Assembly (NCBI GenBank): GCA_001784175.1
Contig: MFPR01000017.1
Location: forward strand, 93,024-157,023
DNA: 64,000 nt
Source: Candidatus Lindowbacteria bacterium RIFCSPLOWO2_12_FULL_62_27
Lineage (GTDB): Bacteria; Lindowbacteria; 2-12-FULL-62-27
Reading direction: 5' to 3'
Shown here: positions 4,322-24,933 of the stretch, piece after piece
Layout: each line of letters opens with the position of its first letter
Position numbering within the stretch: the first letter of the stretch is position 1
Program-made: the position numbers and the translations under genes
The notes under the pieces: generated by a model
The model's database searches: none
What the model was told of the DNA's origin: nothing
The model's input: the letters and a program-made list of their open reading frames with translations, nothing else

Positions 4322-4329
4322 GGGCGGCG

Positions 4330-5244
4330 ATGACACCTCAGGCGACGATGTGGCTGATCTTCAATACGGCGGTCCCCGCCATCCTCCTCTTTGACGTGCT
4401 GGTCCTTCAGAAGGAGTCGAAACCGCCGGCGCTCAAGGAGTCGGCCGGCTGGGTGATCTTCTGGGTCGCGCTGGCGATGCTGTTCAACCTCTGCGTCTAC
4501 TCGCTCCTGGGCCGGCAGAAGGCGATGGAGTTTCTGACGGCCTACCTGATTGAGGAGTCATTGAGCCTCGACAACATGTTTGTCTTCATCATGATTTTCG
4601 AATATTTCGCCGTGCCCCAGGCGCACCGCCGGCGAATCCTCCACTGGGGGATCCTGATGGCGATCGTCCTGCGGCTCTTCTTCATCTTCGCCGGGGTGGC
4701 GCTGCTCGAGAAGTTCCACTGGATGATCTACGTGTTCGGCGCCGTCCTCGTTCTCACCGGCGTCCGCATGGCGGTCGAGCAGGAGCAGAAGATCGAGCCG
4801 GAAAAAAATATCCTGCTGCGCCTCTTCAAAAAGGTGATCCCGTTCGTGGATCGGCACGACGGCCCGGAGTTTTTTGCGCGCACGGGGGACAGGCTTGCCG
4901 CCACGCCGTATTTCGCCACCCTGCTCGTCATCGCCTTCAGCGACCTGGTCTTCGCCATCGATTCGATCCCGGCCGTGCTGGCGATCAGCGGCGATTTCTT
5001 CATCGTGGCGACCTCCAACGTCTTCGCGGTCCTCGGCCTGCGCGCGCTGTTTTTCCTGATCGCGGGCCTCGTGGGGATGTTCCGGTACTTGAGATTCGGG
5101 ATTGCCTTCATCCTGGTCTTCGTCGGCGTCAAAATGATGATCGCGGGATTTTACAAAATCTCCATCGGCGCCTCCCTGGGCGTCGTCGCGGGCATCCTCC
5201 TGCTCTCGATCATCGCGTCGGTCATCGCCGGATGGAAGAAATGA
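4330..5244 (+). CDS. TerC/Alx family membrane protein
   Basis: YLIEESLSLDNMFVF, DLVFAIDSIPAVLAI and SNVFAVLGLRALFF signatures. Confidence 0.92.
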   Translation: MTPQATMWLIFNTAVPAILLFDVLVLQKESKPPALKESAGWVIFWVALAMLFNLCVYSLLGRQKAMEFLTAYLIEESLSLDNMFVFIMIFEYFAVPQAHRRRILHWGILMAIVLRLFFIFAGVALLEKFHWMIYVFGAVLVLTGVRMAVEQEQKIEPEKNILLRLFKKVIPFVDRHDGPEFFARTGDRLAATPYFATLLVIAFSDLVFAIDSIPAVLAISGDFFIVATSNVFAVLGLRALFFLIAGLVGMFRYLRFGIAFILVFVGVKMMIAGFYKISIGASLGVVAGILLLSIIASVIAGWKK

Positions 5245-12166: not shown

Positions 12167-12257
12167 GCACACATCCGTGTGTGCGCCCGCACCCTCCGTC
12201 GTCGGAATTACATCCATGTAATTCCGAAGTCCCGCCTTCGGGTACGGCCGCATCCAT

Positions 12258-12298
12258 GCGCCCGTAGCTCAGTTGGATAGAGCATCGGCCTTCTAAGC
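12258..12298 (+). repeat. att site 1: 5' fragment of tRNA-Arg(UCU)
   Basis: 41-bp identity to 22762-22802 (GCGCCCGTAGCTCAGTTGGATAGAGCATCGGCCTTCTAAGC). Confidence 0.95.
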
Positions 12299-12516
12299 TG
12301 ATCCACGCAAATTTCAATTTTTCAACGGCGTTCAGGATTATTCAGTAAGCGTCTGTTCCTTGTTGAATTATCTCCGCGTGTGATTTTCTGATTTCAGGAT
12401 TTTTCAGTTCGAGTAGGCGCAGTTCCGTCCCCTTTTGTCCCAAAAACCGGTACAAATCCGGTACAAGTTTGGAAGCGTGTTTCGTGGCGGATCATGGGCA
12501 GTCATCGCTGCTCCCC

Positions 12517-12554
12517 TTGCATTTGTAACAAAAATTGTGTACTTTTTGTTACAA
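12517..12554 (+). promoter_or_regulatory. abiEi promoter with overlapping inverted-repeat operator
   Basis: TTGCAT-N17-TACTTT overlapped by a perfect 12-bp inverted repeat TTGTAACAAAAA-N8-TTTTTGTTACAA. Confidence 0.7.
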
Positions 12555-12567
12555 CCATTGAGGCGGT

Positions 12568-13182
12568 GTGTTTATGCGATCTGTTGAAAGCAAGATGACC
12601 GGCAGAATATGCGAAAATGACAGGGGTTGGTGCTTTACTCCAAAATCGTTTTTTGGCCTTGGAAGTTCCCAGGCCATACGCATTACCCTTCACCGGCTTG
12701 AAAAACGGGGGACCATTCGCCGCTTGGCCCATGGTCTGTACGATTATCCCAAAAAGCATCCATCCATAGGCATTCTGTCACCGGATCCGAACGAGATAGC
12801 AAGGGCGTTATCCGTTCGCGATTCCACGCGCATTCAACCGTCCGGCGCTTATGCGGCTAACCTGCTGGGCCTGACGGAACAGGTTCCGGCGAAGATCATA
12901 TTTCTAACGGACGGCCCGGAACGGAGGGTCAGAATTCGATCCCAAGAGATAATCCTGAAGCGGACAACCCCCCGATACATGGCGACCGCCGGGAAAATCA
13001 GCGGAACGGTCATTCAGGCGCTTCGGCACATCGGTGAGGCGAATATCGCGCAATCCGGAATCAAAAGGTTGAGGAAGATGCTGAAGGATAAAGACAGGGT
13101 TCAGCTAAAACGGGACAAGAGACACGCGCCGGCGTGGATGCACCACTTGATTGATTCGATCACGGGTTCCGCCGATGCGTGA
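12568..13182 (+). CDS. Type IV TA antitoxin, AbiEi-like (DUF6088 family)
   Basis: FTPKSFFGLGS, LHRLEKRGTIRRLAHGLYDYPK, SGAYAANLLGLTEQVPAK and terminal APAWM motifs. Confidence 0.85.
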   Translation: MFMRSVESKMTGRICENDRGWCFTPKSFFGLGSSQAIRITLHRLEKRGTIRRLAHGLYDYPKKHPSIGILSPDPNEIARALSVRDSTRIQPSGAYAANLLGLTEQVPAKIIFLTDGPERRVRIRSQEIILKRTTPRYMATAGKISGTVIQALRHIGEANIAQSGIKRLRKMLKDKDRVQLKRDKRHAPAWMHHLIDSITGSADA

Positions 13183-13384
13183 ATTTGCGAAACTTCCGTC
13201 CTTGGAACGCGACACCATTTTCCTGGAGACGGCCAACCGGCGAGGGCTCTCCCGCCTGGTCGTGGAGAAGGACTTCTGGGTCTGTTTCACGCTGTCTCTG
13301 CTGTTCGAGTCAAAACAATTCGACTATCTGTTCGTCTTCAAAGCGGAGCAATGCGGAGGCTTACCAGATGATTTCCACGCCTGA
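13175..13384 (+). pseudogene. Truncated AbiEii/AbiGii nucleotidyltransferase toxin
   Basis: MREFAKL...VVEKDFWVCFTL...LFVFK; similarity stops where the GGTSL motif is expected and the convergent PIN gene follows. Confidence 0.85.
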
Positions 13385-13750
13385 TTTCTCCGAAATGTCG
13401 GCGTCTTTGGTGACGATGGCAACGGGTTCTTTGGTCAAGGCGGAGAAGGAGCGGGCGGTCGCAATAATGATGGCGTCATGCAATTCGAAGCCCGCGGGCA
13501 ACAGCGGAAAGAGCGCCACGTCCAAAGGAGCAAATTCAATATTTCGAATCCGGGACCATTTGCCGAGAAGGTCTTCAAAAATGGATGTCACTCGCCGGCG
13601 CTGGCAGAGGTGCCAGATTTCGCCGGCGACGATCGTCGGAACAACCAACCGGCCTGTCAGGTCGGCCATCGCCCCACGGGCCTTGGCCGTCAATCGGCGG
13701 TCATTTTCCAGAAACCATAACAGCGAGTGTGTATCGGCGATGCGGATCAT
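13361..13750 (-). CDS. PIN-domain (VapC-like) toxin
   Basis: IADTHSLLW, PTIVAGE, ELHDAIIIATA and IVTKD acidic PIN motifs. Confidence 0.88.
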   Translation of the reverse strand: MIRIADTHSLLWFLENDRRLTAKARGAMADLTGRLVVPTIVAGEIWHLCQRRRVTSIFEDLLGKWSRIRNIEFAPLDVALFPLLPAGFELHDAIIIATARSFSALTKEPVAIVTKDADISEKSGVEIIW

Positions 13751-13956
13751 GCTGGAAACGGTTTTATCCAGCTCTTCTTCGCCTCGTCGATCTCCTGGTC
13801 CGAAAAATGGATCTTCTTCCGCCAGATGCCAAAAAGATCCCGCATTTCGAGGGATTTACCCTGTTTTTTGCTCCGCTGGTTTACCGCCAATCGCAGAAAT
13901 TCAATCTGCCGTTCCAAGCTGTGAAGTTGTAACAGCACATAATCCGGTGTTGCCAT
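13747..13956 (-). CDS. Putative antitoxin of the PIN toxin
   Basis: 69-aa ORF with ATGA overlap onto the PIN gene; 'LFGIW....FSDQEIDEAKKSW' tail typical of PIN partners; RBS before the ATG at 13956. Confidence 0.7.
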   Translation of the reverse strand: MATPDYVLLQLHSLERQIEFLRLAVNQRSKKQGKSLEMRDLFGIWRKKIHFSDQEIDEAKKSWIKPFPA

Positions 13957-14141
13957 GGCGTTCCCCTTTCCTTCGCGCAACGGCTCGGATCCCATCGGAA
14001 CCGAACCCTTTTCATGCCGCACACAGTATATCCGCCGTTCCACTCTCCGTCAACATTCGCAACCATGAGCCGTTTGCCCCACGAATTGCGGGACGAAAGC
14101 CTCATCGCTGCGTGGCAGGGATGATGTACGGGAAAAAGATT

Positions 14142-14220
14142 ATTTGTGATTGGTGATTCCTAATTTGTGATTTGTGATTGCGATAATCACAAATGGGAAA
14201 TCACAAATCACCAATCACAA
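14142..14220. repeat. Palindromic heptamer-repeat element, copy 1
   Basis: Left arm of ATTTGTG/ATTGGTG units, right arm of CACAAAT/CACCAAT units; first 38 nt identical to 16745-16782. Confidence 0.9.
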
Positions 14221-14278
14221 GTCGCTTTCGCCGCATCGCGGCGTCGAGGTATTACACGACCTGGGGAGGTCGACTGAC

Positions 14279-16674
14279 ATGAAAAAGTTCGTACTGGGTT
14301 TACTTTTCGCTTTCCACTTTGCACTTTTCACTTGGAACGCCGCATGGGCGGACGTTCCAAAATATATATCCTTCCAAGGCGAGCTGACGGACTCGCAAGG
14401 CACGCGCATCACCAGCTCCAAAAGCGTGACCTTCAAACTCCACAGCGCCGCGTCCGGCGGGGCGATTCTCTGGTCCGAAGCGCAGACCCTGACGCCCGCC
14501 AACGGCATCGTGAGCGCGAGCATCGGAAGCGCGACGGCCGGCGGCGTGAATCTGGCGTTTGACACCGGTTACTGGCTCGGCGTGACCGTCTCCCCGGACG
14601 CCGAGATGTCTCCCCGCATTCGACTGACGACCTCCCCCTATGCGTTCATCGCCAAGTTCCTCGACACGGGCGCGACCGCCTACGGCGCGCTGTCGGTTGC
14701 CGAAACGGTGACGGCGAACAAGTTCGTCGGAAACGGATCGCTCCTGACGGGCATCACGGCATCCGCCGCGTCGGACACGGATTGGACGATTGCGACGGCG
14801 AGCACGATCTACCGGCTCTCCGGGAATGTCGCCATCGGCACGACCAGCACGGCGGACAGCTTGCAGATCGAAGGCACGCTCAACGTCGATTCGCCGACGC
14901 TGTATGTGGATGCGGCGAATAATCGGGTCGGCATTGGGACGGCGAGCCCGAACGCGACATTTGAAGTTAACAACGGGCAGTCCATGTTTCACGACGGCGC
15001 TTTCACCGATCCCCATACAGGCACGGCATATGACGCCAAGTTCGGGGGCCCAAACCGGGGCATCGGGGTCAAAGGGATATCTATTTTCAACGACAACGTC
15101 GGCATCGGCACAACGTCTCCGGCGGATTCGTTGCACGTCGCAGGCCGCATTCAAATGGACACGAACGCGGCGACTTCCGCCGCGGACGGCGCGATTCGGT
15201 GGTCGGGATCGGATTTCGAGGGCCGGAAGGCCGGATCGTGGGCGTCGCTGACGGCGACGGGCGGCGCGACGCCGGATACGGACTGGACGATGGTCGGCGG
15301 CACGATCGGGAACATCTACAGGAGCGCCGGGAATGTGGGCATCGGGACATCGAGTCCGTCGGATTCGTTGCATGTGGCCGGAACGGTTCGCGTTTCGGAT
15401 TCGATGACGGTCGGCGATACGGTGTTCGTGGTCAATTCAAAGAGCGGCAACGTCGGCATCGGCACCACAGGGCCAGCAAGTACGTTACACTTATACCAAT
15501 CAGGAGCAGGGCTCGTTATTCAAAATTCAGCCACAGCCGGGGTGGGCAATTTAGCATCTATACATTTTCGGAACCTGCTCGCATCTGGCGCAACTCACTA
15601 TGCCGCTATTATTAGAGGGGCTCAAGATAGCACTACCCAGAATAGTGGGCATTTAGAGTTTGTCACGTACAATAATGGCAATGCCGATGAGAGAATGAGA
15701 TTAACAAAAGAAGGCAACGTCGGCATCGGGACGACGGCGCCAGGGGCGAAGATGCACGTTGCCGTTGATAACTACGAAAGCATCCTGTTTGATCGGAGTG
15801 TAAATGTGAACTCCCCGAATAAGTACTCGATAGGCGTAAGCTACTCTGGCGCTGGCGCTGACTATCTCAGATTGGGCAAGACGGGCGGAGATCCATTCGT
15901 CATCAATCCAAGCGGCAACGTCGGCATCGGGGATACGGCTCCGGGGAGCAGGTTGGATGTAACGGGAGCGGCGCATGTATCTGATTCTTTTGCAGTGGGT
16001 ACTGCGGCGGGCGACCGTCTGGTTGTTACAACATCGGGCAACGTCGGCATCGGCACAACGACGCCGGGGGATAGTCTGGTTGTCAAGGGCGGAGTTATGT
16101 CGGACACACTGACAGTGGGAGACACGTTTTTGGTTGTATTAAAGAGCGGCAATGTCGGCCCGGCACGACGAGCCCTGGCGCTAAATTGCACGTCGCCGGA
16201 AATGTTATCGTCAAAGACACCATAACCGTCGGGGATACGTTCTTGGTCGTCCTTGCCAGCGGCCGGGTCGGAATCGGCACCGCAAGCCCAGATACCGACT
16301 TCTCTGTCAACGGCGGGGCATCCAAAGTCGGCGGCGGGTCCTGGGCGACCTTCTCCGATGGCCGCCTCAAGAACATCGACGGCCAGTACAAAGCCGGCAC
16401 GGCGGAACTCATGAAACTCAATCCCGTCAAATACCGCTACCGCGCGGACAATCCGGTCGGCATCAAGGATGGCGCGCCTCATATCGGCCCTGTTGCTCAA
16501 GAAGTTAAGGAAGCCATCCCGGAGGCGGTTGAATCGAACAACCAAGGTTACCTCATGCTCAACAACGACCCCATCATCTTCGCGATGCTGAATGCCGTCA
16601 AGGAACAACAGGTGACGATTGAGAAGTTACAGGGGAGAATCGAGGAATTGGAGAGGAACCAAGCGGCGAAATAA
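14279..16674 (+). pseudogene. Secreted GNVGIGT-repeat fibre/adhesin with C-terminal peptidase S74 (intramolecular chaperone) domain; 1-nt frameshift at ~16160
   Basis: GGGGAGG RBS and signal peptide; N-terminal 'ISFQGELTDSQG...LWSE...EMSPRIRLTTSPYA' domain; about 10 GNVGIGT repeats; WATFSDGRLKNI S74 motif and coiled coil lie in the second frame (ORF 16186-16674). Confidence 0.85.
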
Positions 16675-16744
16675 GATTACGGGCGGACCTCCCGCCAAAG
16701 ACCGGCCGGATGATGCATGCGCCATTTTAGATTGCCGTCGGGGG

Positions 16745-16820
16745 ATTTGTGATTGGTGATTCCTAATTTGTGATTTGTGATTTCAATCACAAATTGGAAA
16801 TCACAAATCACCACTCACAA
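16745..16820. repeat. Palindromic heptamer-repeat element, copy 2
   Basis: Direct repeat of 14142-14220; abuts the stop codon of the DUF2442 gene. Confidence 0.9.
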
Positions 16821-17087
16821 CTATTTTTTCTTTGCGTTCGGGGCAGGAGCGCCTCGAAGAAGTCCCTCCGTACTCAAATCCTCATCAATTTCCGGCCAGT
16901 GAATGCCGTACCCCCCGCCGCCGACCTGCCATTTTTTCCTTTGCTTCGGCGTGGCGTTCGCGAGTTTCGGATACCAAGCCAGAGGAACCGTGATGGTGCG
17001 GCCATCCGACAGGCTGACGCTCAGGTCAACCTCTGTGATTTTAACGTCTCTTACCCGTTCATCCGCGCCCAGAGCCAAAATACCCAT
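16821..17087 (-). CDS. DUF2442 family protein (TA antitoxin partner of DUF4160)
   Basis: LSDGRTITVPLAWYPKL.NAT...GIHWPEIDEDLSTEGLL signature. Confidence 0.9.
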   Translation of the reverse strand: MGILALGADERVRDVKITEVDLSVSLSDGRTITVPLAWYPKLANATPKQRKKWQVGGGGYGIHWPEIDEDLSTEGLLRGAPAPNAKKK

Positions 17088-17142
17088 GCCATGCCTCCAA
17101 GAATTCCAGTCGATGTTCCCTGACCAAGCGAACCGTCGGCAT
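17059..17142 (-). pseudogene. Internally deleted DUF4160 toxin (27 aa)
   Basis: Manual translation MPTVRLVREHRLEFLEAWHGYFGSGRG*: the family N-terminus MPTV is joined directly to the C-terminus ..EAWHGYFG, overlapping the DUF2442 start. Confidence 0.75.
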
Positions 17143-17231
17143 AACACGCACGAGTATACACGATTTCATGCATGAATTCAAAAAAACGGGCAACGTCGGC
17201 ATCGGGACGGCGGAGCCGCGACACCGGGAAC

Positions 17232-17444
17232 ATGGGGCATAAAAATATTTCGACGACTCGCCGGTACGCGCATCTTGAGCGAAAACAAAAACAGGAGGCG
17301 GTTGACAGTATTTCTGATCAACTCAGCGATGAGGCCGGCGATCCCCAGAATTCGAAGGCCGCGAGAAAATTGGGTTGGACAATTGCCCCGACTATCGTAA
17401 TATTTCAAGAAAGTGGAGGAGGCATCCATGTACGCATGCGGTGA
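17232..17444 (+). pseudogene. Tyrosine integrase C-terminal remnant (island 1)
   Basis: MGHKNISTTRRYAHL matches the LGH..TT..Y box II motif; points toward att site 2. Confidence 0.8.
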
Positions 17445-18994
17445 AAGGGCTGTTCCCGGATATGGTCGATGCGAAAATTTTGCACAAATTTTGCACAAGT
17501 CGATTTTGAATTGTCGCATTGTTTTGTAACTGTTTGATAATCCCAATGCGCCCGTAGCTCAGTTGGATAGAGCATCGGCCTTCTAATTCGTTGGAATGGT
17601 AAAGAAGATGCAGACCCATTTTCGCCATCTTCATCAACCATCTCATTCTGCGCCTGTAGCCACGCCTTCAACGTCTCCTCTGCACGCAACAATTCATCCC
17701 TCAACCCCGACGGCAACGCATCGGCGTAATCACGCTCCAATTCTGCAACCGTATGGCCAAAGTGTTTTGCGAGCCGTACCATGTCGAAGCTGATACGCGT
17801 TGCGGCGTGATACCAAACACTTGCCACAGTTTTCCGAAGGCAGTACGACGCAGCACCGAGCCTCTCTCCGATCAAGACACGAAACCTGTCAGACATTTCC
17901 GACGATATAGTATTCTCGCTACATTTTCGCTCCGCGAATTGTGGCAACAGCGCAACGACAGCGACGTCGCCAGAGCTATCAACAAACCTATCCCGAGCGG
18001 CATCATACTGTAATCCGCAATGTGTTGCATATGCACGCAACCCCGCAATCAAACGATTCGAGAGCATCATCACACGCCCGCGCCCGCGTTTTAACTTTTT
18101 CGATTTTTCATTTTTCGGTGGTACAAAAATTCCACGACGGGACAAGCGCACATGATCCCAACGGATACGACGCACCTGCGCGGCACGGTTGCCGGTCTCG
18201 CGTTCGACGAGCAACCAAAAATCTGTATCATCTACACTCGACAAGACATCATCAACCACACGTAACTCTTGACCTGTCAGGACACGCCAAATTTCTTGGC
18301 GCGTCGGCGATTGTGCTTCAAACCCGAGCGACCGCATACGCAACACCAAACGAATATTATTTTCCGTGACAAGTTTTTCCAGAATTCCTGCATCCACCAC
18401 ACGCGCCAACAACTCAATTTCTTTCTTGATCGTATTATCCTTTGAAAACGGCTGCGCACGCCGATATTCAACGTATTGCGTAAGGCGAGCCTGCGACACA
18501 ACAGAAATCTTGTCATTGCCAAAAAAACGCAACAACTTATTCAGGTCTGTTGCGTGGCGTTTACGTTGACCTCCGCTCTTAACCACTCTGAAACAATAAC
18601 CGTTTTCCTCGACGAATTTTTTTGCGAATCGGCCATTCGACGATGGAACATACCGTCCGACCTGCAATTTTGACAAAATACCGCATTGAGATGTTGCCAA
18701 ATGTTCTACAATTTCCTGCACCGTTAAATCCTGACAAACAGGATCGACAGCAACACCACGATGAACGATTGACAGCGCACGCTCAAGCGTTGACACTTCC
18801 ACATCACGCCGGGACAAGAGATTTTCTGTAGTCCCTTCCTCCGATACCTCACGCCGACGAATGCCGTCAAAGTCATAGTCTTCGACAACATCGGCTTGAC
18901 GACACATCAACGCCGTGGGAACATCTGGACGAGATCGATTTTCAGTTTCAACGGCCTGCGGCTGGCCCCGCAGGCTTTGTTTTTCCTCAAGCAT
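17405..18994 (-). CDS. int: Tyrosine recombinase/integrase whose ORF runs through the att site
   Basis: SAM-like domain (TIKKEIELL); catalytic R (ETGNR), K (KNEKSK), YCLRKT (HxxR variant), FGH, and Y (ERDYA); RRPMLYPTELRA is the antisense tRNA half. Confidence 0.85.
   Translation of the reverse strand: MLEEKQSLRGQPQAVETENRSRPDVPTALMCRQADVVEDYDFDGIRRREVSEEGTTENLLSRRDVEVSTLERALSIVHRGVAVDPVCQDLTVQEIVEHLATSQCGILSKLQVGRYVPSSNGRFAKKFVEENGYCFRVVKSGGQRKRHATDLNKLLRFFGNDKISVVSQARLTQYVEYRRAQPFSKDNTIKKEIELLARVVDAGILEKLVTENNIRLVLRMRSLGFEAQSPTRQEIWRVLTGQELRVVDDVLSSVDDTDFWLLVERETGNRAAQVRRIRWDHVRLSRRGIFVPPKNEKSKKLKRGRGRVMMLSNRLIAGLRAYATHCGLQYDAARDRFVDSSGDVAVVALLPQFAERKCSENTISSEMSDRFRVLIGERLGAASYCLRKTVASVWYHAATRISFDMVRLAKHFGHTVAELERDYADALPSGLRDELLRAEETLKAWLQAQNEMVDEDGENGSASSLPFQRIRRPMLYPTELRAHWDYQTVTKQCDNSKSTCAKFVQNFRIDHIREQPFHRMRTWMPPPLS
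17548..17586 (+). repeat. att site 2: 5' fragment of tRNA-Arg(UCU)
   Basis: 39-bp identity to 22762-22800, ending exactly at the end of the anticodon loop (CTTCTAA). Confidence 0.95.
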
Positions 18995-19352
18995 GAAAAT
19001 CCCTCCCCACTCGTGATTTTTGCATCATCCTAAAATCCAACCGCAACCCAAATCGCTTCGAAAATTTTTCCATGACCTCTATCTCCGTAATTGACAACAT
19101 ATGAAAATCCAACAACCGCCTAATCACACTTTCAACAACACGTTTATTTTTCATAATATCGTCAGCGGTCATAACGACACACCCACTGTACACAATAACC
19201 GCTCCTGTAATTGGATCAAAAATCACCCACACTTCATCTTTTTGAATGCGACGCAACAATAAATCAAAATACCCAGCATCTCGAAAATGCAATTTTAAAC
19301 AATCAATCAGTTTCCTTAACTGGCGATTCTCTAATTTTCTTTTTTCGACCAT
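18987..19352 (-). CDS. Hypothetical protein of element 2
   Basis: ORF overlaps both the RHH gene and int; likely start at ATG 19352 (or 19385). Confidence 0.6.
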   Translation of the reverse strand: MVEKRKLENRQLRKLIDCLKLHFRDAGYFDLLLRRIQKDEVWVIFDPITGAVIVYSGCVVMTADDIMKNKRVVESVIRRLLDFHMLSITEIEVMEKFSKRFGLRLDFRMMQKSRVGRDFHA

Positions 19353-19549
19353 CGCAACACCTTGCCTTTCTCGGTTGTCCGGCATCTGGACAAATATTCA
19401 CGGATCGCACGCCGGATCAAATATGAAATTGCGCGACCTTCGCGACGACCAAGAACACGAAGTCGCTCACGGTCGATCACAGGCATATACACGGTGACCG
19501 CCGCGCAACCTAATCCCTTCACATCCAGAAAATCCATTACCTTACTCAC
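19331..19549 (-). CDS. Ribbon-helix-helix (CopG-like) regulator
   Basis: VTVYMP..DRERLRVLGRREGRAISYLIRRAIREYL pattern; AGGAGG RBS upstream. Confidence 0.85.
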   Translation of the reverse strand: MSKVMDFLDVKGLGCAAVTVYMPVIDRERLRVLGRREGRAISYLIRRAIREYLSRCRTTEKGKVLRWSKKEN

Positions 19550-19564
19550 CTCTCACCACCTCCT

Positions 19565-19593
19565 ATTTTTCCTCCCACGATGTCTATTGTCAA
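19565..19593 (-). promoter_or_regulatory. Candidate promoter of the element-2 operon
   Basis: TTGACA-N17-AAAAAT immediately upstream of the RHH RBS, in the element's only sizeable non-coding gap. Confidence 0.5.
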
Positions 19594-19774
19594 CTCCTTG
19601 AGCTACAAACGGTAATGTATTATTTTTGTTGACAAATTAACTCCCATCAACACAAGCAATTACATCCAACTAACATCTGCTACTCTCCGCAATTATTTTT
19701 TCAAAGTCCCCATCTACACCCTATGTTATTAGGTTCAGCTCTCTTTTTCTTCGGGAGACCCCTTCTCCCGACCT

Positions 19775-21121
19775 CTACCCACTTTCCCCCTCTGACAAAA
19801 TCAAAGGAACCTGAACTTGTAACTCATCAAGTCCCCGACTCCATATGAACCGGCCGGGCGTCGCCGGCAATTTTGCAGATGCACCCGACCCGATTAACTT
19901 GACTGACATATCCAGATTTTTTAAGCGTCCGATCAGGCGGCACGGCAGATTATCCCGCAACTGACCATCCAGCACTCTTACATCTGGACGCTGCGTCGCA
20001 AGAATCAAATGGATCCGCGCTGCGCGACCCTTCATTGCAATGCGCTCAAGTCCCAACTGAATTTCCTTTCCATCTTTCCCGGACACAACGTCCGCAAGCT
20101 CGTCCACGACAAGCACCAGCGGCACGAAATCATCCGATCCGGTACGCGCCTGCTGGTATCGCTCGTCCATCTTCGACACAAGCGCAGTTATCAGCGACAA
20201 GAATTTTTCGGACTCAAACACGTATGCTTTCAATTTCGACTCGATACCTTTGTAGTCCGTCCCTTTCGCATCGATCAGCACAATATCAACACACTGAGCA
20301 ATCAGTTGCCGTATCAATCCCAACAGCACCGTTGTTTTTCCACATCCTGTTTCACCACCAATCAGCAAATGCACCATTTCGGTCAACGTGATCACCACGG
20401 ACCGAGAAAAACTCTCTCCAATGTACAATTGCCCCCTACCGGGGGCCGCGTCCGCATGCGCGGCCGCCTGCGCCCGATTCACCGCTTCTTTCACAGTCAA
20501 CTCAAACCGCCCCGGCAATGTTCCGGTTCCATAGTCATATTGGTAGCTACCTGCCCCGCACTCATGGAAGCTTTCAAAATGTCCGTTGTATTCATTCGCC
20601 AACCGTTCTGTTTCCATCCTCTCCCGGTCTGTACCGCGTGGCCGGAAATATAGTGTCACCGCGCGACCCCGCGAAAACTCCGCAATGAAGTCCGGCGGCT
20701 CACCCGAGCCACTGACAACTCCGGCACTCCGACAATGTTGCTCAAATTTTGTCGCTGAAATTCGCCATCGCAAATTGAACGCACAGCCGAACGAAAACAC
20801 CATCAACAGAAATGCAAGCAGAACCAACACGATCAACGGAAACGATCCGATATACTCGACAGGTTGCAGAAGTCCAACACCCAAAAGCAAAGTTCCAGAT
20901 ATGTATAAGTCAACCGGACGGAAGTACCACCGATCCGTCCGTAATTTCACCGAACAAAATCTTACCCAGCCATCAAGACCGCCGACCATCAACAAAAACA
21001 GAGACACAACAGATAACGTTCTCCTGAACGCCTCCAGCAGCGGAACATGACCGAACGCCTTCAACAGCCCGGCTACGATAATCGCCAGCCCAGCCGACAA
21101 GCAGACAATGAAACGCATCAC
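19775..21121 (-). CDS. FtsK/SpoIIIE-family ATPase with N-terminal TM helices (TcpA/TraB-like DNA translocase)
   Basis: HLLIGGETGCGKT Walker A, LIDAKG, LVVDELAD Walker B, GRAARIHLILATQRP. Confidence 0.92.
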   Translation of the reverse strand: MMRFIVCLSAGLAIIVAGLLKAFGHVPLLEAFRRTLSVVSLFLLMVGGLDGWVRFCSVKLRTDRWYFRPVDLYISGTLLLGVGLLQPVEYIGSFPLIVLVLLAFLLMVFSFGCAFNLRWRISATKFEQHCRSAGVVSGSGEPPDFIAEFSRGRAVTLYFRPRGTDRERMETERLANEYNGHFESFHECGAGSYQYDYGTGTLPGRFELTVKEAVNRAQAAAHADAAPGRGQLYIGESFSRSVVITLTEMVHLLIGGETGCGKTTVLLGLIRQLIAQCVDIVLIDAKGTDYKGIESKLKAYVFESEKFLSLITALVSKMDERYQQARTGSDDFVPLVLVVDELADVVSGKDGKEIQLGLERIAMKGRAARIHLILATQRPDVRVLDGQLRDNLPCRLIGRLKNLDMSVKLIGSGASAKLPATPGRFIWSRGLDELQVQVPLILSEGESG

Positions 21122-21525
21122 AGCCGGGAGAACTCCGATACATCTTCCGCACCTCGAACCGCCGTAGCCTTCAGCTTGCGCGGAGCCTTGTCGTCAGCCG
21201 AGATCGGCGACACAGCGTCAGGCAACTTCACATCATCCCGACGTTTTCTGCCCGAGTACTCCAATATCACCGCAGGATTAGGAAACTCCCTACAGCGATA
21301 GAACCTCTGACCTTTCCATTCGCGAACCCGGAACACATCCAAAACCATCTGCTTGCCGTCTGGCAGATCGATATGACCCGGAGAAGTCATATCGCAGCGG
21401 TAAAACTCCCGCGTACCCCGATCAACAAGCTCAAACGAGTACGCAAAAAATTTCTCTCCGGACTGTTTTGCTGTTACCTCACGCTCCCGAACATTTAGTA
21501 CAGGACCGGCTAAAATCATTTGCAA
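21118..21525 (-). CDS. Putative ssDNA-binding (OB-fold-like) protein
   Basis: Small beta-rich protein (ILAGPVLNVREREVTAKQSGEKFFAYSFELVD) between rep and the FtsK-like gene, with a disordered tail; assignment relies on position and pattern. Confidence 0.5.
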   Translation of the reverse strand: MQMILAGPVLNVREREVTAKQSGEKFFAYSFELVDRGTREFYRCDMTSPGHIDLPDGKQMVLDVFRVREWKGQRFYRCREFPNPAVILEYSGRKRRDDVKLPDAVSPISADDKAPRKLKATAVRGAEDVSEFSRL

Positions 21526-22574
21526 CCACCGCCCTCTCGTTGAAATTTTATCAGGTCAGCAACACTGCCAACCCAGTTCATTGACTCCGCGCGACGCAGA
21601 AAATTGCGCCACTTCTGGACGGAATCTATGCGGTACCACCACCCAATGCGTGCAAACTCCCGCGCAATCTCTCTATATTTTTTTGTATCTTCCTTGGGAC
21701 AGACGACACGACGACGCAACTCAAGAGTTTCCGTATCAGGGCGACGAAACGCGGACCACTCCGGAACAGGAACATCGTTCAAGACCGGAACGCACCGATC
21801 CAGCGACCAGTTCCAAATTCCCGAAAACTTTTGCTGGAAATCTGCGAACGTGTCAACTTTCAGATCATGCAAAACTGAACGACGCAATTCCACCTCGTAG
21901 CGTAAAACCTGAGACTTGCCGTCCCAGCCGGACCGCATCCAACGCTCAAACCAATCCTGTCGCGCCGGATTCTTTGTGACGTTGAGTTCATAGGGTTTGT
22001 CATACAAACGTGTCACCATATCCCCCGACCTGAACCAGTACCCGCTAAACCGCGAAGGTGTTCCATATTCCTTCGATTCGTATTTCCCGCCTTTCATTCT
22101 GCAAGACCAACCCCTCAACCCCAGAGACGCAAAATCTGTCTCCGGCACAAAATCCACGCAAACATCTACGCGCGATAAAATTTCACTTTCAATATCAGCG
22201 TGAGAACGTGCCAACTCCAATACGACACGCTCAACATATTCCAAATTTTCCGAGAGATTCGGACACGCACGTGATCTGAAAATGACATACAACTCTGGTA
22301 CGCCAACACTGTAACGCTGATGCGATGACAACCACCCCTCAACTTTTTTTATCTGTATCTCAATGCCCCTCGACTCATTCACCAGAGTAAAAGCGTAAGG
22401 ACCGCGACCCTTGCGGCGAACTTCCGAGTTTTCACCACCCAAGTCAAACCGCGCCGATCCGGTCTCCTGCGCTTGGAGCTTCAGCTTTTCCAAATCAGAA
22501 TTGAGACCTTCGCGCAGTACGACGCGCCGAGATACCATAAGCGTGTCGATGGCCGGACCGTGTAGAATCTTCAC
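21516..22574 (-). CDS. rep: Rolling-circle replication initiator/relaxase, Rep_trans-like
   Basis: IDTL, LSRVDVCVDF, RLYDK (catalytic Y) and VLRYEVELR motifs; GTG at 22574 has a GAGGTG SD (alternative GTG at 22583). Confidence 0.85.
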   Translation of the reverse strand: MKILHGPAIDTLMVSRRVVLREGLNSDLEKLKLQAQETGSARFDLGGENSEVRRKGRGPYAFTLVNESRGIEIQIKKVEGWLSSHQRYSVGVPELYVIFRSRACPNLSENLEYVERVVLELARSHADIESEILSRVDVCVDFVPETDFASLGLRGWSCRMKGGKYESKEYGTPSRFSGYWFRSGDMVTRLYDKPYELNVTKNPARQDWFERWMRSGWDGKSQVLRYEVELRRSVLHDLKVDTFADFQQKFSGIWNWSLDRCVPVLNDVPVPEWSAFRRPDTETLELRRRVVCPKEDTKKYREIAREFARIGWWYRIDSVQKWRNFLRRAESMNWVGSVADLIKFQREGGGCK

Positions 22575-22720
22575 GGACGCCACCTCTCGACAGTAGGCTC
22601 AACAGACGATACACGCAGACCATCCCTCGAAAGTTCAATTTTCAAATTGATTGTGATGTTGACGTGAGCTTCGGCCGACACGTTCAGGCCGTTGCTCACA
22701 GCCGATGGTCGCGTTAGACT

Positions 22721-22749
22721 TTGCTTTTCTCCGCTACCGTTTGTATCAT
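22721..22749 (+). promoter_or_regulatory. Element-supplied sigma70-like promoter for tRNA-Arg
   Basis: TTGCTT-N17-TATCAT ending 12 nt before the tRNA 5' end. Confidence 0.65.
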
Positions 22750-22761
22750 CATTACTTGTGT

Positions 22762-22835
22762 GCGCCCGTAGCTCAGTTGGATAGAGCATCGGCCTTCTAA
22801 GCCGAGGGTCCCCGGTTCGATTCCGGGCGGGCGCG
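22762..22835 (+). tRNA. tRNA-Arg (anticodon UCU), CCA not encoded
   Basis: Acceptor stem GCGCCCG/CGGGCGC, D arm GCTC..GAGC, anticodon arm TCGGC-CTTCTAA-GCCGA, T arm CCCGG-TTCGATT-CCGGG. Confidence 0.97.
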
Positions 22836-22836
22836 T

Positions 22837-23517
22837 TTATTTGTCCGGCAGGCTCCATTTATTCCGGTATTTGTCCAGGGCCGCGCGCCAGGCCGGGCTG
22901 CCGAAGGCGCCGCCGCTGGCGTGCGTGACGGCAATCGGCCAGGTGCCGATGCGGAGGCCCGCCGTTACGGCGGTCCGGCAGAAATCCATGTCGTAGAGAT
23001 GGAATTCGAATTGTTCGTCGAATCGGACCGATCGATCGAGCAGCGTCGCGCACTTGGCTGCGATCAGCAGGCCATCCACCGTTTTCACCTCCGCCGGGCA
23101 GTCGCCGTACCATGTGACCGGGCCGAAGGGCCGGCTTCCGTGCGCGACCGCGCCGGAGAGATTATCCGCGAGGTCCCATTCGAAGCGGTCGTTGGCAAAC
23201 GCCCATGCCGGCGTCGCCGGCGCCGGTGATTTGTTTCCGGCGAGGCCGATCACGTCGAATCTCTCCAGGCCCTCCCGGATCCGGTCGGCGAAATGGTAAT
23301 CGTCGATCCAGACGTCGTCATGCATGAACACCATGACATCGGCCCGGTTTGCCTCGGTGATCAACTGATTGTAGACCCGCGGCAGTGTCTCCGCGTTTTC
23401 AAACGCGATCCATGCCGAAAGCCGCGCGTCGCGGGCCAGCCGGCCCAGGCTGGCGCCGAGCGGAGAATCTTTGAATAGGGATTCAGACAGCCGCGTGGCG
23501 GAAACGATCTTGATCAA
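22837..23517 (-). CDS. GT2-like glycosyltransferase
   Basis: VFMHDDV DxD motif, VDGLLIA, RFDEQFEFHLYDMDFC, VTHAS. Confidence 0.85.
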   Translation of the reverse strand: MIKIVSATRLSESLFKDSPLGASLGRLARDARLSAWIAFENAETLPRVYNQLITEANRADVMVFMHDDVWIDDYHFADRIREGLERFDVIGLAGNKSPAPATPAWAFANDRFEWDLADNLSGAVAHGSRPFGPVTWYGDCPAEVKTVDGLLIAAKCATLLDRSVRFDEQFEFHLYDMDFCRTAVTAGLRIGTWPIAVTHASGGAFGSPAWRAALDKYRNKWSLPDK

Positions 23518-24144: not shown

Positions 24145-24933
24145 TCAAACACGCGACAGCAGGACCCGGTCGAGCAGCGACGGGAAAAACCGGTTGACGA
24201 AAATCCCGAGCTTGCCGATCCCCGTCAGGATCGTGTCCCGCCGGTTCTTGTTCAACGCCTTTACCAGGAGCCGCGCGCAGGTGTCGACCGTCATCGGCGT
24301 GGTCGGCACGCCCCTGCGGTGCGTCACGCCGAACCGTTTCTGGTGCGCGAGAAACTCGGTCTGGGTGTGCCCGGGGCTGGCGTACATGACCTGCACGCCT
24401 TTTTTGGCGTACTCGACCCGCAGCGACTCCGTGTAGGCCTTGAGGGCCGACTTGGTGGCGCAGTAGGACGACATGAGCGGCATCGCGCGGTGTCCGACCA
24501 CCGACCCGATGTTCATGATCTTGCCGCCGCCCTGCCGTTCCATGATCGGGAGGACTTTTTTCATGAGATACAGCGACGCAAAGAGATTGGTTTCAAAGAT
24601 CTCCCGTTCCGCCGCCATCGGCGTGTCGACGAAGAGGCTGTCGATGCCGTAGGCCGCGTTGTTGATCAGCACGTCGATCCGGTTGAACCGCCGGACCACG
24701 TCGTCGATCATCCGGTCGACGGCCGGGGCGTTGGTGATGTCGAGCGGATACGACGTCATGGTGATTTGGGCGCGGGTCTTCGAGATTTCGTCCCTGAGCG
24801 CCGTCAGGAGTCCATCCCGGCGCGCGATGAGCACCAGCGTCGCGCCGGTCTTCGCCATTTCCCGGGCCAGCGCCGCGCCGATTCCGCCTGACGCGCCCGT
24901 GATCAGTGTGACTGTGCCGTTCCAAGATTGCAT
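24145..24933 (-). CDS. Short-chain dehydrogenase/reductase
   Basis: TGASGGIG, NNA, YCATK. Confidence 0.92.
   Translation of the reverse strand: MQSWNGTVTLITGASGGIGAALAREMAKTGATLVLIARRDGLLTALRDEISKTRAQITMTSYPLDITNAPAVDRMIDDVVRRFNRIDVLINNAAYGIDSLFVDTPMAAEREIFETNLFASLYLMKKVLPIMERQGGGKIMNIGSVVGHRAMPLMSSYCATKSALKAYTESLRVEYAKKGVQVMYASPGHTQTEFLAHQKRFGVTHRRGVPTTPMTVDTCARLLVKALNKNRRDTILTGIGKLGIFVNRFFPSLLDRVLLSRV

Follow-up and report, generated by a model that had tools for sequence, protein, structure and literature searches.

The window is a 64,000-nucleotide stretch of contig MFPR01000017.1 from a Candidatus Lindowbacteria bacterium, a rarely sampled host. It contains three exact copies of a 40-nt repeat corresponding to the 5' half of tRNA-Arg(TCT), and these delimit two tandem islands (Table 1). 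The two right-hand copies (R2 and R3, the latter at 22761–22800) are spaced by 5214 nt; for the third exact copy, R1, whose match to the tRNA extends to 12301 with one mismatch, none was expected in 100 shuffles. Island 2 (17587–22800, 5214 bp) lies within the tRNA-Arg(TCT) gene and is a discrete insertion. A genome of a related genus (G002) has an intact tRNA-Arg(TCT) with homologous upstream DNA and without element 2, so the insertion is not ancient. The right end of island 1 (17309–17546) aligns at 83% identity with the sequence that precedes tRNA-Arg(TCT) in G002; the lengths of the indels between the two are not divisible by three. Island 1 is decayed: a C-terminal integrase fragment alone is left, at 17172–17444.

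Table 1. Features of the element, its target tRNA and the flanking DNA (window coordinates).
Feature	Position	Strand	Remarks
R1	12257–12296	+	tRNA-Arg 5' half, leftmost of the exact copies; left border of island 1
Right end of island 1	17309–17546		DNA upstream of the tRNA before insertion of element 2; codes for the last 47 codons of integrated Int
int	17405–18994	−	Tyrosine integrase, integrated form, 529 aa
R2 / attL identity block	17547–17586	+	tRNA positions 1–40; antisense reading RRPMLYPTELRA within the int ORF
hyp	18987–19385	−	Hypothetical protein, 132 aa (121 aa from ATG 19352); no family match
RHH	19331–19549	−	Ribbon-helix-helix (CopG-type) protein, 72 aa; first gene past the gap; GGAGGTG Shine-Dalgarno
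Gap	19550–19774	−	Single intergenic gap of the element, 225 bp
ftsK	19775–21121	−	FtsK/SpoIIIE-family ATPase, 448 aa
orf133	21118–21519	−	Small protein, 133 aa
rep	21516–22574	−	Putative rolling-circle initiator or relaxase, 352 aa; Rep_trans-like (TBP-like) fold
P' arm of attP	22571–22760	−	Open frame of 63 codons that extends int in the circle; its stop is the TGA of GTGA
Candidate promoter of the rebuilt tRNA	22721–22749	+	TTGCTT-17-TATCAT, 8/12, 11 nt short of the tRNA
tRNA-Arg(TCT)	22761–22836	+	First 40 nt are R3 / attR; Rfam: 22762–22835
Host gene	22837–23517	−	226 aa; on the strand of rep; ends at the tRNA

The int ORF begins at ATG 18994, behind a GGGGAGGG Shine-Dalgarno sequence, and reaches att, which starts at codon 471, without a stop; after ...FQRIRRPMLYPTELRA it continues for another 47 codons into island 1. 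Its product has the residues R270, Y384-x-x-R387, H414 and Y423 and matches phrog_1 (4e-12) and PF00589 (3.7e-4, under the Pfam cut-off). In a protein atlas, named integrase families account for most of the matches listed by features (scores 0.97–0.98) and for 10 of the 10 structural neighbours listed, and the sequence reads as that of a divergent tyrosine integrase. No relative besides Int itself was found among 7999 scored candidates; the single cluster returned has two members, of 529 and 393 aa, and no 545-aa form was found. One gene caller gives an alternative 393-aa Int from GTG 18586. The 136 codons dropped by that call score 0.219 per codon in codon usage, and the 44 codons from Tyr423 to att score 0.259, against a mean of 0.198 per codon in held-out coding windows. 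Both values are gene-like, which suggests that the Int extension is genuinely coding as far as att. The catalytic Tyr423 lies 48 codons ahead of att and structural alignments with integrase folds stop at residue 428–432; two forms of Int that differ beyond att would thus share a whole catalytic domain, as the first-pass annotation had proposed, and differ in the tail alone.

Rep starts at GTG 22574, as it also does in the public gene call P0002 (352 aa), and carries the motifs SRVDxCxDF, RLYDK and RxExxxRR. A Pfam search with Rep gave no match, and the representative library contained no Rep of >50% identity; distant relatives number 449 at E<=0.001. The six best Foldseek matches of its AlphaFold model (58 sequences; pLDDT 82.7) are Rep_trans initiators (4CIJ, 4CWC and 4CWE; E 3.8e-8 to 1.9e-7), and a profile search of PDB sequences returned 4CIJ at E 0.002. 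The modelled fold supports a rolling-circle initiator or relaxase, and the earlier label 'rep' stands. For orf133, the label 'ssb' has weak leads at most: its language-model neighbours are unnamed, DUF961 and G5P/ssDNA-binding clusters, and Pfam, PHROG and NCBIfam returned no family match. The FtsK-like ATPase is a membrane protein, with many hydrophobic stretches, judged by eye, in its N-terminal third. The hypothetical protein between RHH and int occupies a position where an excision factor might sit.

Neighbouring genes of the element overlap: rep and orf133 as ATGA, orf133 and ftsK as GTGA, hyp and int by 8 nt, and RHH and hyp by 22 or 55 nt according to which start is taken. The sole large gap carries a promoter-like TTGACA-17-AAAAAT at 19593–19565 (10/12), ahead of RHH, and an 8-bp hairpin directly past the ftsK stop. 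Promoter-like sites over the whole region number 5, against 5.3 expected from shuffles.

At attR, the int frame gives RRPMLYPTELRA, followed by 63 codons (HTSNDD...VERWRP) as far as TGA 22573–22571. This stop overlaps the rep start, GTG 22574–22572, as GTGA, and a Shine-Dalgarno sequence, GAGGTG, stands 6 nt upstream of the GTG. The other two frames over the post-att stretch hold 6 and 4 stops. The first-pass annotation had described the int frame as open through att at both ends of the element, the GTGA junction with its Shine-Dalgarno sequence, the gene overlaps and the single gap with its TTGACA candidate, and all of these were found as described. The same 190 nt must double as the P' arm, in which an imperfect palindrome lies at about 22664–22698, and probably also contain, on the other strand, the promoter that serves the rebuilt tRNA; the element gives the 5' half of the tRNA and must therefore, presumably, also give its promoter.

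These features suggest how the two states of the element would differ. The attP core consists of tRNA-Arg(TCT) positions 1–40, antisense, inside the C-terminal extension of the integrase ORF. Integration yields a 529-aa Int whose last 47 codons are supplied by the sequence preceding the target tRNA, and excision would yield a 545-aa Int with its last 63 codons from the other end of the element and its stop overlapping the Rep start. In the 5214-bp circle, RHH-hyp-int-rep-orf133-ftsK would form one unbroken overlapping string behind the gap, and the gene string previously proposed for the circle holds as sequence anatomy. The int-rep GTGA is of the same kind as the rep/orf133 and orf133/ftsK junctions, which supports it. 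Excision would assemble this six-gene unit, so that only in the circle would the promoter in front of RHH drive the replication and transfer genes, and only there would these be translationally coupled to int; integration would split the unit in two and might thereby keep chromosomal nicking and rolling-circle replication in check. We give about an even chance to the reading of the locus as a six-protein integrative element whose excision assembles an int-rep unit and whose integration splits it; a single transcript, translational coupling and a switch against chromosomal nicking are plausible on the sequence. Read depth over the element equals that of its flanks in run X1 (15.2 versus 14.8 and 16.1) and in run X2 (16.7 versus 15.9 and 15.6), with no sign of circles, and the one metagenome contig found is identical to the window.

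Several known systems share parts of this arrangement. SSV1-type fusellovirus integrases likewise have the att site within the int gene; their integration splits the gene and parts the enzyme, whereas the catalytic domain here is whole, with Tyr423 before codon 471. In mycobacteriophage BPs, attP reportedly lies within a regulatory gene and integration alters the C-terminus of the protein, but that gene encodes the repressor rather than the integrase, and it is not known to be coupled to a replication gene. [quoted passage not shown] Mx8 is a temperate phage and the present element a 5-kb rolling-circle element; the review passages on Mx8 mention no replication-gene coupling.

The archaeal pleolipovirus SNJ2 offers the other half of the comparison. 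Excision there brings int together with genes of the opposite provirus end in one compact operon, and a new attP-spanning ORF (orf26) arises downstream of int (Nucleic Acids Res. 2026, PMC13107129). The operon includes a rolling-circle initiator with a TBP-like Rep_trans fold, Rep-Arvir, which has a fused MarR-like domain, and its authors hold that the arrangement ties replication to genome topology (PMC13107129). SNJ2 is a virus of an archaeal host, in contrast to our bacterial element; its orf26 is separate from int, whereas in our element int is itself the ORF that runs across attP, with its stop on the start codon of rep; and its operon was shown by experiment, whereas the unit proposed here is known from DNA sequence. 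Elements of the pSAM2 type from actinomycetes, to which our host does not belong, are also small and tRNA-integrated, and combine a tyrosine integrase with a rolling-circle Rep and an FtsK-like ATPase for transfer. Accounts of pSAM2 place rep, xis and int in one operon, in the order rep-xis-int-attP as against int-attP-rep here, and assign RepSA to the pC194 family, not to Rep_trans, whereas Rep here is Rep_trans-like. In integrative mobilizable elements of the MobT type and in Tn916, ICEBs1 and ICESt3, a Rep_trans-related relaxase is also the rolling-circle initiator of the excised element. The pairing of MobT with the FtsK-like coupling protein TcpA on small integrated elements, described there in Firmicutes, resembles that of Rep with the FtsK-like ATPase; the window proteins gave no match to curated models of the MobT/TcpA families.

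The locus might instead be a small integrative element of the ordinary kind, for which the crossing of att is a by-product, with any Int tail tolerated and the frame beyond att open by chance; on that account, rep would rely on its own, unrecognised promoter or on read-through out of the host gene, and excision would switch nothing. We judge this a serious possibility, a little short of an even chance. The post-att frame (62 codons scored) stays open in 710 of 20,000 and 2000 of 61,531 mononucleotide shuffles (~3.5%), which is not extreme, but its first stop coincides exactly with the Rep start, in a 4-nt overlap like those at two other junctions, and adding that demand brings the chance to roughly 0.01, a post hoc estimate. 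Codon usage of the tail is marginal: at 0.005 per codon it lies below 35 of the 36 held-out coding windows, a score that 10.5% of the shuffles open by chance also reach, whereas the Int extension before att is gene-like. In the controls, the integrated-state 47-codon tail is open in the same frame, and at the G002 site this frame stays open for 70 codons beyond att (open frame 145 aa), although the DNA of both is not protein-coding by its indel pattern. The comparison set comprised 26 distantly related rep-int islands that have both repeats: int ends ahead of the repeat in 20 and crosses the whole repeat in 4, from one Pseudidiomarina lineage, where the tail swap is trivial (6 versus 7–9 codons); the integrases of the 26 islands are not detectably related to Int. 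As to the expression of rep, the 326 nt upstream of it on the minus strand hold no sigma-70-like site of at least 8/12 (shuffle mean 0.54). However, the host gene points toward rep and ends 263 nt upstream of it when integrated, with no terminator-like site predicted between them, and a 95-aa ORF from ATG 22858 then crosses the antisense tRNA and ends on the rep-start GTGA, so that rep is not necessarily silent or uncoupled in the chromosome. Both the host gene and the tail codon usage cut against a clean switch, and the further duties of the tail DNA, as P' arm and probable tRNA promoter, also weigh against the int-rep reading; the functional precedent demonstrated in SNJ2 speaks for one.

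Two further readings carry far less weight. Were the element a decaying remnant, with an int that lost its stop or was frameshifted near its 3' end, the read-through would be meaningless. Island 1 next to it is clearly decayed and the depth of the element is about one copy per chromosome, but the element's six ORFs are all intact and tightly overlapped, codon usage from Tyr423 to att is that of coding sequence, and the empty G002 site shows that the insertion is not ancient; we consider decay very improbable. We give still less credence to the idea that the 63-codon frame belongs not to Int but to an N-terminal extension of Rep that has been frameshifted, or forms a small gene by itself. Many relatives of Rep do carry 50–70 extra N-terminal residues and align to it from their residue 50–80 onward. 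However, a stop closes the rep frame 10 codons before its start, a conserved N-terminal motif follows GTG 22574 after ~10 residues, as in relatives lacking the extension, and the tail peptide showed no similarity to 186 proteins, Rep relatives included (best phmmer E 6.7). Nor does the tail frame offer, within the element, a start codon in register that is preceded by its own Shine-Dalgarno sequence.

Returning to the int-rep unit assembled by excision, the anatomy is real and each half of the idea has published precedent. The first-pass annotation had taken the combination to be undescribed, which is not supported in view of the C-terminal swap in Mx8 and of the excision-assembled int-rep operon and attP-spanning ORF in SNJ2. 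The element is a bacterial variant of known arrangements, and its proposed logic would join that of Mx8, where integration swaps the tail of Int, to that of SNJ2, where a replication operon containing int exists only after excision.

Element 2 is a real, discrete insertion at a tRNA gene. The first 40 nt of tRNA-Arg(TCT), the single tRNA gene in the window, occur in three exact copies (0 expected, 100 shuffles) that delimit two tandem islands; the copies bounding island 2, the element analyzed here, are spaced 5214 nt apart. The repeat comprises tRNA positions 1–40, the 5′ half, with the intact gene at the far end, as in the class of islands that displace a 5′ tRNA fragment, which the available portion of the Islander island-finder study gives as the rare class (159 of 3919 islands). 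The G+C content is ~50% in island 2 versus 60–69% in the right flank, its strand skew is strong, and the minus strand carries all six ORFs. One of the three other genomes of the phylum, G002, from the same family and another genus, has an intact tRNA-Arg(TCT), flanked on one side by a homolog of a right-flank gene of the window (79% identity to 24149–24725). The 260 nt directly upstream of that tRNA align at 83% identity to the attL side of the window; identity starts precisely at the repeat, so G002 represents the site without element 2. This shared upstream DNA holds remnants of the island-1 integrase (its 3′ end) and, given the indels of 2, 19, and 1 nt that separate the two genomes here, does not encode protein in the int frame.

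Coordinates of the features discussed (window positions unless a locus or contig is named)
Feature	Position	Strand	Remark
Repeat, outermost copy	12257–12296		left end of island 1
Island 1	12297–17586		decayed
Repeat blocks in island 1	14142–14234; 16724–16820		short AATCACAAAT-like repeats, 94–95% alike, flanking the gene of a 683-aa GNVGIGT-repeat protein
Island-1 integrase remnant	17172–17444	+	C-terminal fragment only, classical type
Segment shared with G002	17309–17586		upstream of the tRNA in G002
int ORF	17405–18994	−	ATG at 18994
attL	17547–17586		
Element 2 (island 2)	17587–22800		5214 bp
Sole intergenic gap	19550–19774		225 bp
GC-rich hairpin	19751–19772	−	8 bp, right after the ftsK stop
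Tail (post-att frame)	22571–22760	−	P′ arm
TGA stop of the tail	22573–22571	−	
GTG start of rep	22574–22572	−	
Imperfect palindrome	22664–22698		GTGAGC..GGCC / GGCC..GCTCAC, between att and rep
attR	22761–22800		
tRNA-Arg(TCT)	22761–22836	+	22762–22835 in Rfam
Host gene upstream of rep	22837–23517	−	ends at the tRNA
ATG of the 95-aa ORF	22858	−	
Right-flank gene region	24149–24725		homolog in G002
Chance ORF at L084 (G002:C180:3251–5066)	1321–1758	+	145 codons
tRNA array, G000 contig C27	~3000–4600		outside the window

The host is a bacterium, because its full-length 16S matches the bacterial model; its GTDB phylum comprises four species representatives only. An Rfam scan of the element returned the tRNA only. 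Elsewhere in the genome, a dense array of at least 21 tRNA genes (ARAGORN numbering) includes a second tRNA-Arg(TCT), and the target of the islands is therefore not unique. Island 1 also contains a repeat-rich surface-type protein and toxin–antitoxin-like genes. Each of the three sister genomes has multiple copies of relatives of the GNVGIGT-repeat gene, and the conserved repeat at this gene has a very high contig depth, contributed by many organisms.

The integrase gene reads across att. The first-pass annotation had placed att inside int, with no stop ahead of it and a whole catalytic domain, and had the integrated frame run 47 codons into the neighboring island; this anatomy stands. The repeat, read antisense, is RRPMLYPTELRA, and the 47 codons that follow it enter the upstream DNA with the island-1 remnants, giving the 529-aa integrase of the integrated state (Int-529), a form also called by other sources. 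The 40-nt identity block corresponds to codons 471–483, which puts the attP core within the int coding sequence, as in the Mx8 type. Int matches phrog_1 (4e-12), phrog_216 (4e-10), and, under the gathering score, Pfam PF00589 (3.7e-4). In a protein atlas, named integrase families account for ten of the ten structural neighbors listed and for the majority of the feature neighbors listed, with structural alignments covering residues ~80–431; against PDB sequences, Int gave nothing meaningful (best match E=1). Alignment and inspection place the active-site residues at R270, Y384-x-x-R387, H414, and Y423. In one MAFFT alignment with inspection, residues 384–387 read Y-x-x-R in place of the usual bacterial H-x-x-R, and a published paper lists the same H-to-Y substitution for archaeal pNOB8-type integrases. 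Since att begins at codon 471, after Y423, the catalytic domain is whole both in Int-529 and in the predicted circle form, Int-545. Both forms have a C-terminal extension of ~100–115 residues and end differently, with tails of 47 and 63 codons, respectively. The int start codon has a strong Shine–Dalgarno sequence, and the 136 codons omitted by one gene caller have gene-like codon usage. The 44 codons from Tyr423 to att score 0.259 per codon, which is gene-like (held-out coding windows average 0.198); the ORF does not just stray past the end of a complete gene.

At the other end of the element, the int frame stays open for 63 codons past the attR repeat, and its TGA overlaps the GTG start of rep as GTGA, with GAGGTG 6 nt upstream. 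Circularization would create a new coding sequence across attP, the predicted 545-aa Int, as in the SNJ2 type. The circle order would be RHH-hyp-int-att-rep-orf133-ftsK, in which all junctions overlap (hyp/int by 8 nt, RHH/hyp by 22 or 55 nt, rep/orf133 as ATGA, orf133/ftsK as GTGA) except at one gap, again an SNJ2-type contiguity. That gap holds a TTGACA-17-AAAAAT site. The ORF map and junction coordinates thus agree with the first-pass annotation on int crossing att, the circle order, the neighbor overlaps, the one large gap with a TTGACA candidate, and the 63-codon frame terminating at the rep start. The region has five promoter-like sites, versus 5.3 expected from shuffles, and none of at least 8/12 lies on the minus strand within 326 nt upstream of rep (shuffles give 0.54). 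The hairpin after the ftsK stop is followed by an A-rich, not T-rich, run; this hairpin is therefore not a typical intrinsic terminator for the element's strand.

In the proposed mechanism, transcription of RHH-hyp-int-rep-orf133-ftsK from a promoter ahead of RHH would occur in the circle only, translation of rep would be coupled to that of int, and the replication and transfer genes would be cut off from this unit upon integration. The reading frames themselves show that any ribosome translating int in the excised circle has to pass through attP and end on the Rep start; in the chromosome, it ends 47 codons into the tRNA-upstream DNA. We give this circle wiring about an even chance of actually being used. 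The fuller proposal, that in a bacterial element excision itself would build a translationally coupled integrase–initiator pair, with Rep and the transfer proteins made from the circle only and the Int-529 tail perhaps biasing toward or against excision, is put forward tentatively, as a little less likely than not.

The main alternative is that the tail is a chance open frame. In favor of function, shuffled post-att DNA remains open in 710 of 20,000 and 2000 of 61,531 trials (~3.5%), and the other two frames contain 6 and 4 stops. The first stop of the tail falls on the rep start, through a type of 4-nt overlap found twice elsewhere in the element; the joint chance of the open frame and of a stop at the rep start is ~0.01, as a post hoc estimate. 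The gene-like codons between Tyr423 and att and the lack of a promoter-like site ahead of rep also speak for function. The codon score of the tail points toward chance: at 0.005 per codon, it ranks below 35 of the 36 held-out coding windows, and 10.5% of open shuffles do as well. Long open frames also arise non-coding in the same register, as in the 47-codon integrated tail and in G002, where the frame extends 70 codons past att within a 145-aa open frame. The latter, at locus L084, runs antisense across tRNA-Arg(TCT) and its upstream DNA, where the indels mark it as non-coding; it is a local case of a long chance ORF antisense to a tRNA. The 190 nt of the tail must double as the P′ arm and, because the element provides the tRNA 5′ half, should also hold the tRNA promoter on the other strand; a plus-strand TTGCTT-17-TATCAT site (8/12) ends 11 nt ahead of the tRNA. 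The coupled reading also has a competitor in the integrated state, in which the replication and transfer module may be expressed from the chromosome. The host gene upstream lies on the same strand as rep, with no terminator-like site before rep, and a 95-aa ORF formed upon integration terminates on the same GTGA; the integrated module therefore need not be silent.

The tail was also considered as a frameshifted N-terminal extension of Rep, which was rejected (phmmer against 186 stored proteins, best E 6.7). Neither the gap nor the tail contains a strong hairpin by an inverted-repeat scan, and their predicted folds have z-scores of only −2.1 and −1.9, respectively. In the predicted tail fold, the principal hairpin comes from the palindrome between att and rep; this palindrome could serve as an origin or as a binding site for Rep or Int.

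Rep itself lacks any match in Pfam (even at E≤10), PHROG, or NCBIfam, and hence to the curated Rep_trans model PF02486. A public 352-aa gene call, P0002, begins at exactly the GTG that overlaps the tail stop. In an exhaustive HMMER search, 449 cluster representatives qualified as relatives (E≤0.001), the best match having 33% identity; none of the best 20 of the 449 has a Pfam family. An AlphaFold model built from a 58-sequence alignment reached a pLDDT of 82.7, compared with 35.8 without the alignment; the C-terminal helical part (residues 294–346) is at 58–69. The top six Foldseek matches of the model are Rep_trans initiators (4CIJ, 4CWC, 4CWE; E 3.8e-8 to 1.9e-7, TM by target 0.46–0.53), followed by TATA-binding proteins, consistent with the TBP-like fold of Rep_trans, and a Rep profile compared with PDB sequences finds 4CIJ at E 0.002. 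Six residues, among them candidates for a catalytic tyrosine and acidic metal-binding positions, are invariant among the 58 sequences: D137, D141, Y191, K193, R225, and E227. Judged by the predicted fold and the 4CIJ profile match, Rep is a putative initiator or relaxase that would work in the manner of Rep_trans or MobT but lies outside Pfam's model. Loci L013–L069 (for example, L018:4799–10466, L041:2894–8128, and L052:44–5482) carry this Rep_trans-like family without a Pfam model, represented by the 449 cluster representatives. Of the other products, the one of 448 aa belongs to the FtsK/SpoIIIE family of ATPases (PF01580, 1.6e-17; NCBIfam plasmid_TraB at 19 bits versus a cut-off of 800), and the 72-aa protein is a ribbon-helix-helix protein (PF01402, 1.9e-5). 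The 133-aa product of orf133, initially labeled ssb, has no family match; its language-model neighbors (0.87–0.93) are unnamed, DUF961, and G5P/ssDNA-binding clusters, all of them no more than leads.

The combination of a swapped integrase tail with a link to rep had been thought undescribed, a view that does not survive comparison with two known systems, as far as the available parts of the sources describe them. In myxophage Mx8, att lies inside int and integration swaps the C-terminus; a review reports that Mx9 integrates similarly, and Islander treats Mx8 and SSV as known exceptions with att inside int. In the haloarchaeal virus SNJ2 (PMC13107129, April 2026), int and the genes upstream of it become joined upon excision to genes from the opposite provirus end, and a new ORF, orf26, spans attP. 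The accessible text of that paper describes the operon as co-transcribed, with each of orf19–orf26 required for replication, and includes in it a rolling-circle initiator with the Rep_trans TBP-like fold; its authors conclude that the arrangement ties genome topology to replication activation. The same text describes Rep-Arvir, in which a MarR-like winged helix is fused to the catalytic domain, in archaeal elements. The SNJ2 host is haloarchaeal, whereas the host of element 2 is bacterial. Open-access papers and preprints yielded no bacterial case, no attP-spanning int ORF in such an operon, and no int/initiator stop–start overlap. Element 2 may be a bacterial counterpart of the excision-assembled SNJ2 operon fused with an Mx8-type tail swap, a possibility that we rate a little below even. 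From what is accessible of the literature on them, two bacterial groups share parts of the gene set: small integrative elements of actinomycetes (Rep and an FtsK-like TraB) and integrative mobilizable elements of Firmicutes (a Rep_trans-related MobT relaxase and an FtsK-like TcpA). Integration at a tRNA 3′ end in an actinomycete does not describe element 2, in which the repeat is the 5′ half and the host belongs to another phylum.

A pattern from a 14-sequence alignment, scanned against one genome for each species, gave 80 loci with distant relatives of Rep, in Brocadia-type Planctomycetota, numerous Gammaproteobacteria, Dormibacterota, and other groups. In 43 of the 80, an antisense tRNA gene follows rep at a distance of 1.0–2.0 kb, and most of these intervals contain an integrase-sized ORF. 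Both tRNA repeats are visible in 26 loci, which define islands of 5.2–8.7 kb with the order rep–integrase–tRNA (antisense), bounded by 45–112-nt repeats of the tRNA 3′ part; several public contigs with these islands are only 4.4–7.2 kb long. The int stop falls before the repeat in 20 islands, inside it in 2, and past the whole repeat in 4. These four are Pseudidiomarina tRNA-Phe islands (L042, L047, L050, L051) in which int ends in the chromosomal tRNA part; the swapped tails are of 6 versus 7–9 codons, and the predicted C-termini of the circle and integrated forms differ by a few residues only. Crossing of att is thus an occasional outcome where int abuts att. In tblastn searches of the 80 loci at 1e-3, the FtsK of element 2 matched in 5, whereas its Int, hyp, RHH, orf133, and tail sequences had no match. 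The integrases of the 26 islands are not detectably related to that of element 2, and their order is rep-int-att in contrast to int-att-rep; these islands neither support nor refute the excision-coupled model.

Element 2 occurs in seven public metagenome runs from four studies, four of the runs possibly being the source of the assembly; the metagenomes with the element are from groundwater and soil. The four runs examined (X1, X2, X4, X5) are represented by Logan contigs built from 31-letter words, which cannot span a 40-nt repeat; the contigs break inside the repeats and are blind to the circle junction either way, so the circle is neither shown nor excluded by them. The element is a single piece of 5231–5232 nt in two of the four runs and several pieces in the other two, spanning 17557 to 22784–22790. 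Its depth is 15.2 in X1 (flanks 14.8 and 16.1), 16.7 in X2 (15.9 and 15.6), 8.2 in X4, and 5.6–7.9 in X5 (flanks of the last two 3.7–6.9), or about one copy per chromosome. Among 5.8 billion proteins, Int matches nothing except itself, a single cluster with members of 529 and 393 aa, and no 545-aa Int is on record. No Rep relative above 50% identity was found, a scan of 40 relatives gave no Rep, and the collections searched (proteins, Rep relatives, the four-genome phylum, metagenome contigs) contain no diverged copy of the element. The only metagenome contig found, L096, is identical to the window over 4666 nt save one base; its end (L096:4667–4806), an unrelated GC-rich sequence that departs inside int (window 18165), is probably an assembly chimera.

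The chromosome is damaged when an integrated copy initiates rolling-circle replication, so mobile elements need replication to be licensed only after excision. If the arrangement in element 2 works as proposed, both the integrase isoform and initiator synthesis in a bacterial element would be set by DNA topology alone, without any additional regulator, and a principle just demonstrated in an archaeal virus would be used across domains. Independent of the switch, the analysis reveals a large Rep_trans-like family that is invisible to Pfam and is carried on 5–9 kb tRNA islands in many bacterial phyla.
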